From a virus (Duplodnaviria; Caudoviricetes), in the IMG/VR virus record IMGVR_UViG_3300025120_010521: a stretch of DNA of 64,000 nt, one strand, 5' to 3'. The notes beneath the pieces were generated by a model, which ran no database searches, had not been told where the DNA came from, and saw only the letters and a program-made list of their open reading frames with translations. Both the position numbers and the translations under genes were made by a program. Shown here piece by piece: positions 21,082-59,635 of the stretch; the stretch's first letter is position 1; each line of letters starts with the position of its first letter.

Positions 21082-21089
21082 TATTTATA
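21082..21089 (-). promoter_or_regulatory. T4-type late promoter TATAAATA upstream of the riboswitch
   Basis: Exact octamer, 8 nt before the aptamer. Confidence 0.7.
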
Positions 21090-23134: not shown

Positions 23135-23443
23135 TTATGCTTTTGTTTGATCGAAGTCTGCTAATATAGTTGAAGCCGCACCTGTTACGCCTAATGCGTT
23201 TGATGAGTCAGCTACGTATGTAATTGTGCTTTGTAAAGCAAATTGCACGTTATCAGCTTGATCGTCTGAAGTATAACCATCTACAGCCGCTACTGTGTGA
23301 CCTTCTGTTTTAAGAGATTGGATCAAAGTAGTTAATTCTGCACGAGTGATGTTTGTTTTCGCTACGTTAATGATTTGAGTTCTTGGACCTAGACCATTAC
23401 CGTTATCACCTGTTGGTTTACCTGAAGTTGGACCGAATGACAT
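23135..23443 (-). CDS. small late protein (putatively structural)
   Basis: Own TAAATA promoter, structured leader, AAGGAG SD and own terminator. Confidence 0.65.
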   Translation of the reverse strand: MSFGPTSGKPTGDNGNGLGPRTQIINVAKTNITRAELTTLIQSLKTEGHTVAAVDGYTSDDQADNVQFALQSTITYVADSSNALGVTGAASTILADFDQTKA

Positions 23444-23570
23444 AATATTGTCTCCTTAAATTTTTTAAAACTGCAATATGACCCATATTGTTCATATCGC
23501 AATCGTTACAGTTTTATTTATGCTTGAGAGGCCTATATTATGTGATAATATATAGATTTCTATTTATATT

Positions 23571-56399: not shown

Positions 56400-56676
56400 T
56401 TGGATTTACAACATTTAAATATGATCCACCTAATTCTTCAACATAGTCAATTGTACAACCAAGTATGTACATTTCAGCAACTTTATCTATTAATAATGCT
56501 TTGCCTTCATTTAGTTCAAATTTAATTGTATCTTCAGCTTCTTCATCTGCGAAGTTCCATTCATACTTAAAACCTGCACATCCACCGCCTTTAACAGAAA
56601 AACGCACATATGGTTTATCTTTGCTTAATGCTGTGTTAGTTAAATATGATTTTGCTGTATCTGTTATGTTAATCAT
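56356..56676 (-). CDS. A-type Fe-S carrier (IscA/ErpA/HesB)
   Basis: GGGCAG, SCGCGESF. Confidence 0.92.
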   Translation of the reverse strand: MINITDTAKSYLTNTALSKDKPYVRFSVKGGGCAGFKYEWNFADEEAEDTIKFELNEGKALLIDKVAEMYILGCTIDYVEELGGSYLNVVNPNATSSCGCGESFGA

Positions 56677-57199
56677 TTGTAGTATTTATCTGTTTTTGCG
56701 ATCTAAGTCGTCTACGTTTTTTAGCTTGTTTTGATGTGCTTAACAGCCTATCATAGTTATCAAGTTGTCTTTGGTTTTCATTAAACCATGTTACATATTC
56801 AATTGCTCTTGTTTTTGCCGCTGGATTGTAAATTATATTTGTATAATAAGGATGATAAAGACTATCATTTTCATCTTGCATATATTTGATATAAATTTCA
56901 CCATCAATAACTGTAAAGTGTTTATCTTTTTTTATATAATAATCATTACCGCTTGGATAGTTGCGAACCTTAATGTGGTTTGGTGGTATTCTATCAATCC
57001 AATGCATTCGTGGAAACCAAGAACGTTTACCGTTCCAAGATACACACTCTGGTCTATCTTGTGTTACTTCCCATGCCATTACATAACAAGGATCGTTATC
57101 AATTTTACCTTGAGCTACAACTAGCTCGTCACCAAAGTTATTCTTGCGACCTGATCGCCACACAGTTTTTTCAATAGTGTAATTTTCAGGTCGCGACAT
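56669..57199 (-). CDS. hypothetical protein
   Basis: 176-aa ORF. Confidence 0.6.
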   Translation of the reverse strand: MSRPENYTIEKTVWRSGRKNNFGDELVVAQGKIDNDPCYVMAWEVTQDRPECVSWNGKRSWFPRMHWIDRIPPNHIKVRNYPSGNDYYIKKDKHFTVIDGEIYIKYMQDENDSLYHPYYTNIIYNPAAKTRAIEYVTWFNENQRQLDNYDRLLSTSKQAKKRRRLRSQKQINTTND

Positions 57200-57208
57200 T
57201 TTGAATCC

Positions 57209-57400
57209 TTAGGCACTCGCAGTTTCGGTAGTTTTTGCTTCTTGTATTTCTTTTCTTCTTACTTTTGCAAGTTTTGTGATTTCAGATAAGGCTTTTCTAG
57301 CTCTTGTGCCTGCCGCCTTATTACCTTTTTCAGAAAACTTATCATTGTTGTCTTTGTATTCTTCAAACAATGTTAATAATTGTTGACTTGTAGTACTCAT
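57209..57400 (-). CDS. histone H1-like (Hc1-type) small basic protein
   Basis: KFSEKGNKAAGTRARKALSEITKLAKVRRKEIQ. Confidence 0.75.
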   Translation of the reverse strand: MSTTSQQLLTLFEEYKDNNDKFSEKGNKAAGTRARKALSEITKLAKVRRKEIQEAKTTETASA

Positions 57401-57461
57401 AATTATTTCTCCTTAACTTTGTTATTTTAATATATTTTCTTGTCAAAGTCAATTAAATTCA

Positions 57462-57673
57462 CTAAACCCCAATCAAGGTGGCCAAAAGTGAGCAAAAAAT
57501 TTGTCCCACTCAATTAGGGTTCCGTTATTATATTTCTACCAGATGGTAACGTATATACAACGCGATATAATTCATCCTCATTCAAGAGATCTTACCCCTC
57601 AAGATTCATGGTTTATACCAAACCCAAAAAACCAACGATAGCTTGAACCTCAAGTTTCTATGGTTTCTCACTA
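57462..57673 (-). ncRNA. candidate ~210-nt structured non-coding RNA
   Basis: Gap without a long ORF; at least 6 stems with G.U pairs favouring the minus strand; starts just after TATAAATA. Confidence 0.6.
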
Positions 57674-57677
57674 TATG

Positions 57678-57685
57678 TATTTATA
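57678..57685 (-). promoter_or_regulatory. T4-type late promoter TATAAATA
   Basis: Exact octamer with no protein gene within ~270 nt downstream. Confidence 0.7.
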
Positions 57686-57705
57686 TATTAAAACTACTGA
57701 TAATA

Positions 57706-57912
57706 TTATAATGTAATTGGATCAATTGGCATTATTGTTGAAATTGCATTTTTATATACTAATTGAGTATGTTGCTCACGTTGTAGATACAATGTGCTCT
57801 CATCCATTGCCGTTATGACGCCACTCAATTTAATACCGTTAATTAAAAAAACAGTAACTTGAGATTTTGCATCTAATAATTTTTTTATAAATTTGTCTTC
57901 TTGTTCATGCAT
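57706..57912 (-). CDS. hfq: Hfq (Sm-fold RNA chaperone), divergent
   Basis: VTVFLINGIKLSG (Sm1), QLVYKNAIST (Sm2). Confidence 0.93.
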   Translation of the reverse strand: MHEQEDKFIKKLLDAKSQVTVFLINGIKLSGVITAMDESTLYLQREQHTQLVYKNAISTIMPIDPITL

Positions 57913-57945
57913 GATAATTAATAACCTTCATAAGTATTTATCCAG

Positions 57946-58158
57946 TTATTTATTATCTTTAGAGTTTTTAACCAATTTCATCATCATTAGGTATTGTTGA
58001 TACGATTCTTCGACTGCTGGGTATCTCCTACGCATATATTGTTCATGTTTTGCTCGTTGATCTAGTTTAAACTGTTTACGTTTTAATGTATACAGATCTT
58101 GTTCGAGTTGTTTTATTTTATGCGTTTGTAAGTACTCGTCAGGAGCCATTTGTGTCAA
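57946..58158 (-). CDS. hypothetical protein
   Basis: 70-aa ORF. Confidence 0.55.
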   Translation of the reverse strand: MTQMAPDEYLQTHKIKQLEQDLYTLKRKQFKLDQRAKHEQYMRRRYPAVEESYQQYLMMMKLVKNSKDNK

Positions 58159-59635
58159 TCCACTTATTCAACAATTTAATACCCCATCCTGTAGCACCAC
58201 CACTTGCTGTCATTGACCCTTTATCATTCCAAGTAACTCCTGCTATATCAATGTGTGTCCAAGGAACATCATTTACAAACCTCTGTAAAAATTGTGCCGC
58301 TGTTGTTGAACTTGCTTCGCCGCCTTTACCAACATTATGCATGTCAGCAATTGTTGAATCAACGTATTTGTCGTATCTTTCTCCAATTGGATCGCATGGT
58401 AAACGCCATACTTTTTCATCTACTTTATGTCCTGCATCAATAAGTTGATTGCTTAAATCATCATTGTTTGAAAATATGCCAGCAAGTTGATCACCAAGTG
58501 CAATTGAAATTGCTCCGGTTAATGTTGCTAGATTAATCATTGTTTTTGGCTTATATGTTTTTTGTGTGTACCATAAACAGTCTGCTAGAACTACTCTACC
58601 CTCAGCATCTGTATTATCAATTTCAATAGTTTGCCCACTCATTGAGTTGATTACATCTCCAGGCTTATATGCATTACTAGACACCATATTTTCTACTAGC
58701 CCAATAACACCAACTGCGTTAATAGGTAGGTTACGTTTTGCAATACTGATCATTGTACCAACAACCACTGCTGAACCACCCATATCATATTTCATGTCTT
58801 TCAAGCCTCTAGATGGTTTAATTGAATATCCACCAGTATCAAATGTAACTCCTTTACCAACAAAGGCCCTAGGTGCATCACCTTTTTTGCCTTTCATCCA
58901 TTCCATTACAACCATTTTAGATTCTCTAGCACTACCTTGGCCAACTGCCAATAGTGCTTCAGCACCCATTTCTTTTAGTTCTTTTTCACCATATACTTTT
59001 ACTTTGAGTCCTAGTGCTTCTAATCCTTTAACACGTTCAGCATAAGATTCAGGATACAGTACATTTGAAGGCTCTGAAATTAAATCTTTTGCAAATGCTG
59101 TGCCTTCAATTACTGCGTCTTTGTGTGCATACTCTTCTTTTACTTTTTTTAAGTCAGCACCTTCTTGACATATATCAACTTCAAATAATGTTTCTTCTTT
59201 GTCTTTTTTAGTAAAGTATTTGTCAAACTTATATTCTTTTAACTGCATACCAAAAGCAACATTAGTAGATGATGGTAGTACTTCTTTGTCAACAAATGCA
59301 AGTACACGACCTTGTGTGCCACGTTCTTTTAATTTACTATAAATTGCTCCACCTACTTTTTCTAATTTAGCATCATCTAATTTAACAGGATCTCCTACAC
59401 TAACAAACAATGCATCATGGCAAGGCAAGTTGTTAGATGTAATAAAAAAACTATCTAAAAATTTACCTTTAAAATTATTGTGTGTAATTGTTTCGCTTAA
59501 TAATCCATCAGTGCCTTCATCTAGTATTGATGATGAATGAGATAATTGTACTGCATCGTCTTTTGTATAAAGTAAATGTACTTCGCAAGTACTTTCGCCA
59601 CTTGATTCTATATCGTTAATAAAATCTATTTTCAT
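58139..59635 (-). CDS. pepA: leucyl aminopeptidase (M17)
   Basis: GKGVTFDTGG, MKYDMGG, NTDAEGR, ATLTGA. Confidence 0.95.
   Translation of the reverse strand: MKIDFINDIESSGESTCEVHLLYTKDDAVQLSHSSSILDEGTDGLLSETITHNNFKGKFLDSFFITSNNLPCHDALFVSVGDPVKLDDAKLEKVGGAIYSKLKERGTQGRVLAFVDKEVLPSSTNVAFGMQLKEYKFDKYFTKKDKEETLFEVDICQEGADLKKVKEEYAHKDAVIEGTAFAKDLISEPSNVLYPESYAERVKGLEALGLKVKVYGEKELKEMGAEALLAVGQGSARESKMVVMEWMKGKKGDAPRAFVGKGVTFDTGGYSIKPSRGLKDMKYDMGGSAVVVGTMISIAKRNLPINAVGVIGLVENMVSSNAYKPGDVINSMSGQTIEIDNTDAEGRVVLADCLWYTQKTYKPKTMINLATLTGAISIALGDQLAGIFSNNDDLSNQLIDAGHKVDEKVWRLPCDPIGERYDKYVDSTIADMHNVGKGGEASSTTAAQFLQRFVNDVPWTHIDIAGVTWNDKGSMTASGGATGWGIKLLNKWIDTNGS

Follow-up and report, generated by a model that had tools for sequence, protein, structure and literature searches.

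In the 64,000-nucleotide stretch of viral DNA analyzed here (the window), the hfq gene and the gene for a small histone H1-like protein of the Hc1 family are separated by a spacer of 305 nt, and the minus strand carries all genes at the locus. This arrangement raises the question of what is made from the DNA between the two genes and what it does. A first-pass annotation had placed a structured RNA of about 210 nt right after hfq; the fold was found to hold, with a length of approximately 215 nt. The genes that border the spacer are the following.

57706..57912, minus strand: hfq gene, 68 aa (Pfam Hfq PF17209, E = 1.9e-20), which adjoins the element in every related locus
57209..57400, minus strand: Hc1 histone H1-like gene, 63 aa (Pfam PF07432, E = 1e-18), the first gene downstream of the RNA
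57409..57414, minus strand: Shine-Dalgarno sequence AAGGAG of Hc1, read directly from the sequence and kept in relatives

The hfq-Hc1 locus is conserved in a group of marine phages

Relatives of the locus were collected by three routes. Searches of IMG/VR with Hfq and Hc1 yielded two related contigs of 54 kb and 328 kb, a scan of metagenome contigs with an Hfq profile yielded 28 marine loci, and look-ups of more distant Hfq clusters yielded five more loci. The alignment comprised 25 distinct spacers. In one locus from a long-read assembly (L122), the genes were fragmented, the hairpin was longer by one base and the 3' flank was altered; these were treated as assembly errors. In every locus that reached far enough, the gene order was aminopeptidase, a small ORF, hfq, the spacer, Hc1, a protein of approximately 176-180 aa, and IscA. 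The spacer measured approximately 250-320 nt in about 30 related marine phage loci, the shortest (L001) being 249 nt.

Among GenBank phages, no match to the locus was found by blastn and none to the 176-aa neighbor protein by tblastn, and tblastn with Hfq returned distant matches only, at less than 42% identity and with cellular records among them. As judged by these GenBank phage searches, the phage has no cultured relative. The closest cellular relatives of the phage Hfq were 58-59% identical and lay in hfq-hflX loci (L113-L116), one of them behind ntrY/ntrX-like genes, an arrangement that we take to be typical of Alphaproteobacteria. For this AT-rich phage, there are hints of a marine alphaproteobacterial host or gene donor.

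A late promoter lies directly after hfq

57678..57685, minus strand: T4-type late promoter TATAAATA, exact in 21 of 25 distinct relatives and with one mismatch in the other four, always just after the hfq stop codon
57672..57672, minus strand: predicted late transcript start, 6 nt past the last A of TATAAATA

The late promoter that had been noticed right after hfq was present on the minus strand and was kept in the relatives. Six copies of TATAAATA occurred in the 64-kb window compared to 12.2 expected, and five of the six were on the gene strand. Since the word is depleted and lies mostly on the gene strand, it behaves as a functional late-promoter word. The transcript start at 57672 was placed by the rule for T4 late promoters, and an exact-match contig from RNA library X17 ended at this same position, which is a weak hint of a start. 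A glutamine riboswitch in the same window (Rfam RF01739) was likewise found directly behind a copy of TATAAATA, at 21082-21089.

The spacer encodes a folded RNA of four domains

The minus strand of 57459-57672 encodes a conserved, non-coding, folded RNA of approximately 215 nt. When positions 57440-57690 of the minus strand were folded, the minimum free energy (MFE) was -60.9 kcal/mol, with z = -2.3 compared to dinucleotide shuffles. The domains of the fold are the following.

57626..57669, minus strand: Domain I, a long stem capped by a GGU-triloop hairpin, starting 1-3 nt from the predicted 5' end; MFE fold, with the same architecture in every clade
57642..57654, minus strand: apical hairpin CUUGA-GGU-UCAAG, triloop at 57647-57649; GGU invariant in 25 of 25, with double changes in all five stem pairs
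57563..57620, minus strand: Domain II, variable middle hairpins, unalignable between clades and mostly absent from the relative with the 249-nt spacer
57524..57562, minus strand: Domain III, hairpin CGUUA / ACC-AUCU-GGU / UAACG just before the AACGG motif; a hairpin stands at the same place in each clade, its sequence differing by clade
57459..57526, minus strand: Domain IV, a hairpin of 68 nt and 17 pairs, AACGGAACCC ... GGGGUUUAGUGA; its flanks do not vary, and an A.G mismatch and the GC of the apical loop are conserved

Of the stems proposed at first, GAGAAACCA/UGGUUUUUU around CUUGA-GGU-UCAAG, CGUUA/UAACG around ACC-AUCU-GGU and the long 3' hairpin were all recovered in the MFE fold, whereas GGUUU/AAACC and AUCUUG/UAAGAU fell in a region that could not be aligned between clades. 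This middle part of the RNA nevertheless folds within each clade, and the regions upstream of the 3' hairpin folded better than dinucleotide shuffles in most relatives (mean z of approximately -1.9 in 12 valid sequences). The 3' hairpin, located approximately 60 nt before the Hc1 start codon, has 17 conserved pairs and additional clade-specific pairs, and is interrupted by an internal loop and by the A.G mismatch.

A further copy of TATAAATA, at 23561-23568 on the minus strand, opens a 118-nt leader of a 102-aa ORF whose ATG is at 23443 (element 23443-23568), and this leader also holds a 7-bp GGU-triloop hairpin, centered near 23483. Elsewhere in the window, 14 GGU-triloop hairpins were found on the gene strand, mostly intragenic and not clearly above other triloops in number. 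Late leaders of this phage may have a GGU-capped hairpin in common, or the likeness may be due to chance.

Both conserved hairpins covary on the gene strand

Both conserved hairpins were found to covary across approximately 25 distinct relatives. The covariation score of the GGU-triloop hairpin was 0.908 compared to 0.275 in shuffles, with none of 500 shuffles reaching the observed value, and 90.5% of cells were paired compared to 57.8% in shuffles. The true register was better than every slid register.

The 3' hairpin was exactly 68 nt long in 24 of the 24 sequences found by pattern, and in every sequence free of obvious assembly errors. No variation was seen in its flanks (AACGGA and UUUAGUGA), in its A.G mismatch or in the GC of its 13-nt apical loop. 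RNAalifold assigned 17 pairs to it, with compensatory changes in seven. In this hairpin 99.2% of cells were able to pair, compared to 90.6% in shuffles and 25-55% in slid registers, and double changes occurred in 35 cells compared to 10.7 expected; the score was not reached in any of 500 shuffles. The G-U pairs made up 71 of the 388 paired cells (18%), and the complementary strand would pair in only about 81%. Because G-U pairs become A.C mismatches on the other strand, the RNA is read in the direction of the genes. These findings show two helices with compensatory changes far above shuffled and slid controls, and that the RNA is real and lies on the gene strand.

In seven relatives (groups C and E, for example L105:1370-1386), the 5' GGU hairpin reads AACGGA-GGU-UCC..AGU. 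The 3' hairpin has the same AACGGA ... AGU at its base, as though a recognition helix were present twice.

The spacer shows no coding signal

Gene calls in the source records placed no ORF in the spacer at any record checked, and the ORFs that can be read there differed from clade to clade. It had been considered that a 23-codon TTG ORF might be the conserved element, but in the closest relatives it is put out of frame by a 1-nt indel, and the other clades are unrelated at this place. One sense frame across the 68-nt core was free of stops in 21 of 24 sequences. Variation in this open frame was 13.6, 13.5 and 14.6 bits at the three codon positions, and thus equal, and no conserved start codon or Shine-Dalgarno sequence was found for it in the relatives.

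A small protein gene, either the T-E-P ... G-L-V-I-L-L-D-F-E-V-K frame over the 3' hairpin or the 23-codon ORF, is the least probable of the explanations considered and is highly improbable. The openness of the core frame speaks for it, but the equal variation of the three codon positions, the absence of a conserved start codon or Shine-Dalgarno sequence, the frameshift of the TTG ORF in the nearest relatives and the absence of a call by the source pipelines all speak against it. Moreover, the clades share no related residues from T-E-P to G-L-V, synonymous changes are absent from the invariant codons, and the frame would cross a -35 box.

The RNA is uncatalogued and confined to one phage clade

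A scan of the whole window with Rfam 15 gave just two matches, a tRNA and the glutamine riboswitch, neither of them at the element. With the threshold relaxed to E <= 10, positions 57300-57800 gave chance matches only (E >= 4), inside Hc1, and ARAGORN detected no tRNA and no tmRNA at the element. The earlier judgement by motif that the RNA is not a tRNA, tmRNA, SRP RNA or RNase P RNA agrees with these results. The RNA is an uncatalogued one that belongs to no Rfam 15 family.

A covariance model of the 3' hairpin (R1) scored 84.5 bits at the element, which was the sole copy in the window. The same model detected no copy in front of the Hc1 genes of 78 other phage loci, nor any next to cellular hfq genes. 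A strict pattern of fixed spacing matched only the two related IMG/VR contigs, and nothing among 185,579 prokaryote genomes (GTDB species genomes). The model and pattern results indicate that the element is single-copy and confined to this phage clade in the collections scanned; in these collections it was not found apart from Hc1. Two candidates were rejected. The single match of a first DNA pattern scan (L082) lay within a tail-sheath-like gene and was due to chance. The reverse complement of UUUAGUGA resembles what we take to be the core of a T3/T7-type promoter; this reading was dropped, as the word was not enriched (four found compared to 4.6 expected).

Hc1 follows the RNA and has a promoter of its own

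The late promoter had been said to have no protein gene downstream. However, Hc1, identified by its Pfam domain, follows on the same strand, its start lying 272 nt past the predicted transcript start. Between the RNA and Hc1 lies a second promoter.

57424..57452, minus strand: sigma-70-type (early) Hc1 promoter, TTGACT, 17 nt, TAAAAT; hexamers and spacing are kept in all relatives and the spacer sequence varies

Nine promoters of the form TTGAC-N16-18-TANAAT were found in the window compared to 1.75 expected, eight of them on the gene strand, and this enrichment of the class makes the early Hc1 promoter credible. Selection appears to act on both promoter words in this phage, the TTGAC type being enriched and TATAAATA depleted. 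The 68-nt hairpin ends 6-7 nt before the -35 box of Hc1, a distance that is fixed in all relatives.

In 78 other phage loci, the spacer upstream of Hc1 was 0-94 nt, and in approximately 24 of them (T4-like phages) TATAAATA was present 16-46 nt ahead of the start codon, which argues that Hc1 is ordinarily a late gene. Small Hc1-family genes were common in viral contigs (210 confirmed matches). The position of Hc1-family genes behind a late promoter suggests a late role, possibly related to DNA packaging. The only TATAAATA upstream of Hc1 in the window is the one before the RNA, and in the aligned relatives the stretch from the RNA to Hc1 contains none. A scan for intrinsic terminators over 56500-58500 found none; the first U-run after the GC stem of the 3' hairpin is itself paired, and the U-rich run UUUAGUGAUUUU follows the hairpin.

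At least three studies have RNA-labelled libraries that contain at least two thirds of the words sampled from the RNA. An exact-match contig of 303 nt from library X9 ran from 57659 to 57357, crossing the hairpin and the early promoter into Hc1, and a contig from X16 (57216-57436) included sequence upstream of the expected early start. The exact contig from X17 covered 57502-57672, and Hc1 was covered in that library only by a variant strain. Such contigs are weak evidence, as they cannot prove a single transcript or its ends and DNA carry-over is possible. No exact-match hfq contigs occurred in X9, and X20 appeared to contain the RNA region alone; both points were set aside as evidence, since uncovered parts and small shares prove nothing. 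Neither form of pairing with the Hc1 start region was conserved: RNAduplex gave long, inconsistent duplexes between this region and the RNA, and anti-Shine-Dalgarno pairing had a mean z of -0.1.

The RNA lacks the conserved traits of an Hfq partner or sponge

The word CUUGA followed by a G-rich sequence does recur four times in the RNA of the window, as had been reported, but it is specific to the window, the 24 relatives containing 0-2 copies. A-R-N runs of at least three were absent from the RNA of the window and had no common position in the relatives. Among the traits of Hfq-dependent small RNAs, a U-tailed terminator, a conserved Hfq-binding motif and a conserved single-stranded seed were all looked for and not found. 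A sponge of the CsrB/RsmZ type carries many conserved loop copies of one motif; here a single GGU triloop is conserved.

When the phage Hfq (57706-57912) was inspected by eye, the residues of the distal face were seen to be kept (equivalents of F/Y25, G29, I30 and K31), with E for Q8, N for H57 and no arginine patch on the rim. Judged from these residues, the phage Hfq may bind A-rich RNA but not the U-tails of small RNAs. The link of the RNA to hfq consists solely of adjacency within a single clade, whose loci were found through hfq. The suggestion that the RNA is a sponge or a partner of the adjacent Hfq is not supported, given the unconserved repeat and the absence of a U-tailed terminator, of conserved A-R-N runs and of conserved pairing to the Hc1 ribosome binding site. 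What remains of the initial proposal is a real, uncatalogued and structured phage RNA at a conserved late promoter next to hfq.

Discussion

The conservation, structure and strand of the RNA, its promoters, its lack of a coding signal and its presence in RNA libraries are results of the analysis, and its function is interpreted from them. The explanation that we prefer, and to which we give about an even chance, is that the RNA is the cis-acting structured 5' leader of a late Hc1 operon transcript, possibly processed. Several observations lead to this reading: Hc1 is normally late and the sole upstream TATAAATA precedes the RNA; no terminator was found and the X9 contig bridges the RNA and Hc1; the distance between the hairpin and the Hc1 promoter is fixed and the element was never found without Hc1; and the glutamine riboswitch provides a precedent behind TATAAATA in the same phage. 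We infer that the main product is co-transcribed with Hc1 and that the mechanism operates in cis. Late transcription would begin at the promoter just after hfq and run through the RNA into Hc1, and decay of the message that depends on its 5' end would be held off by the flush 5' stem. The 68-nt hairpin with its invariant flanks may be recognized by a protein or by an RNase specific for double strands. This factor would set the late output of Hc1, and its action may also free the leader as a stable fragment. Against a leader stand the conserved promoter that Hc1 owns, so that the leader would be needed only late, and the lack of any conserved anti-Shine-Dalgarno or other cis pairing to the Hc1 start region. 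The U-rich run UUUAGUGAUUUU after the hairpin would also allow partial termination or processing to a discrete small RNA, and in X17 the RNA region of this strain is present as an exact contig while Hc1 comes only from the variant strain.

These last points lead to the reading that ranks next, a serious rival that we consider possible though clearly less probable: a stand-alone late small RNA of approximately 215 nt, formed by termination or cleavage after the 68-nt hairpin and acting in trans on host or phage messages or proteins, possibly with the phage Hfq. The RNA has a conserved promoter of its own, its 5' end is paired, and a U-rich run comes after its strong 3' hairpin, which together is the anatomy of a stable RNA. 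RNase E has a loose sequence preference, which the GA|UUU or GA|AUU after the hairpin fits. The broad presence of the sampled words in RNA-labelled libraries, the end of the exact X17 contig at the predicted start, and hfq as the upstream neighbor in all 30 loci point in the same direction. However, a canonical terminator was not found, the stem absorbing the first U-run, and there is no conserved single-stranded seed, A-R-N run or repeated word. The phage Hfq, as read by eye, is without the proximal-face and rim residues that bind U-tails, the X9 contig bridges into Hc1, and the adjacency to hfq holds in one clade only, in loci that were found via hfq. It is doubtful, with a smaller chance again, that the RNA is a dedicated Hc1 regulator, either a decoy or operator bound by Hc1 or a device that times Hc1 relative to DNA packaging with the altered phage Hfq, and in this sense an independently evolved counterpart of the IhtA-HctA pair.

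The remaining explanations are each unlikely. A riboswitch-like leader that senses a ligand and gates late Hc1 and the genes behind it would account for an RNA that begins right at a late promoter, as the glutamine riboswitch of the window does, and for invariant nucleotides in loops, bulges and helix ends alongside stems that covary. It is unlikely, given that no Rfam aptamer matches, that the middle of the RNA is unconserved whereas the core of an aptamer usually is conserved, that no expression platform (terminator or anti-Shine-Dalgarno) was found, and that Hc1 has no metabolic link to suggest a ligand. Somewhat less probable still is an insulating or leaky terminator hairpin for hfq and upstream transcripts, with the rest of the spacer as neutral filler; a long GC-closed hairpin and then a U-rich run do lie immediately before the next promoter, but the terminator scan did not call it, and the conserved late promoter, the invariant GGU hairpin, the 250-320 nt spacer, the invariant AACGGA and UUUAGUGA flanks and the exact length of 68 nt would be left unexplained. 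Control of the early Hc1 promoter at the DNA level, by an operator, a cruciform or an UP-like element, is suggested by the fixed distance of 6-7 bp from the hairpin to the -35 box in all relatives. We regard it as very unlikely, because the 18% of paired cells that are G-U would be mismatched in the other strand or in the arm of a cruciform, and the 5' GGU hairpin approximately 190 bp upstream is conserved too.

The Hc1 leader that we favor can be compared with known systems. The leader of phage T4 gene 32 contains a translational operator with a small pseudoknot, by which the protein level is tied to the free protein. As in the present case, a fold followed by an A/U-rich stretch leads to the ribosome binding site of a gene for a nucleic acid-binding protein in a T4-type phage, and the operator is present on transcripts from upstream promoters. 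In contrast, the RNA described here is a multi-domain one of approximately 215 nt with a 68-nt hairpin, it has no sequence similarity to the operator, and its fold is separated from the gene by an early promoter. The anatomy of the gene 32 type, a fold and an A/U-rich run to the ribosome binding site, fits the locus, and the X9 contig bridges the fold and Hc1, contigs being no proof of one transcript. In phage T7, RNase III hairpins lie between genes (R1.1), and their cleavage leaves a stabilizing 3' hairpin on the upstream RNA. These sites share with the 68-nt hairpin an irregular helix of about two turns with an internal loop just ahead of the start region of the next gene. The apical loop found here is large (13 nt) and conserved, the flanks are invariant, which T7 sites do not need, and there is no sequence similarity. 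A T7-type RNase III signal is a hairpin of approximately 20 bp or more with an internal loop, placed between cistrons; with 17 conserved pairs and further clade-specific ones, an internal loop and such a position, the hairpin has this shape and is a candidate for such a signal.

In Chlamydia, the small RNA IhtA represses translation of the Hc1 homologue HctA (PMC4355289, PMC3469542); it has three stem-loops and acts in trans, with loop 1 pairing over the AUG (PMC4355289). Both IhtA and the RNA described here are non-coding RNAs associated with the control of an Hc1-family protein late in a developmental program. The phage RNA differs in that it lies on the same strand directly upstream of Hc1, shows no conserved pairing to the start region and has no Rfam match. 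Hfq-dependent small RNAs of bacteria and phages are similar in size range, in having their own promoter and stable hairpins, and in the adjoining hfq; in contrast, the RNA has no U-tailed terminator, conserved Hfq site or seed. The glutamine riboswitch (RF01739) also starts a few bases after TATAAATA, but it is a known aptamer of approximately 50 nt with a known ligand, whereas the new RNA is four times larger and without a family. The RNA belongs to none of the T4 gene 32 operator, T7 RNase III site and IhtA-HctA families, which are its closest working analogies.

Giant marine T4-type phages are abundant but have not been cultured, and most ideas on how they control their genes are extrapolated from T4. 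The element would make a further RNA family, one that is well supported by comparison and shows signs of being expressed in ocean metatranscriptomes. It is located between two regulators that act on nucleic acids, a variant Hfq and a histone-like protein. It is also a short, defined and testable object, with two hairpins that carry invariant nucleotides. As a free small RNA, it would be among the few candidate partners of a phage-encoded Hfq. If Hc1 is controlled by the RNA, the locus would reveal how the dose of a DNA-condensing protein is set in such phages, both early and late.
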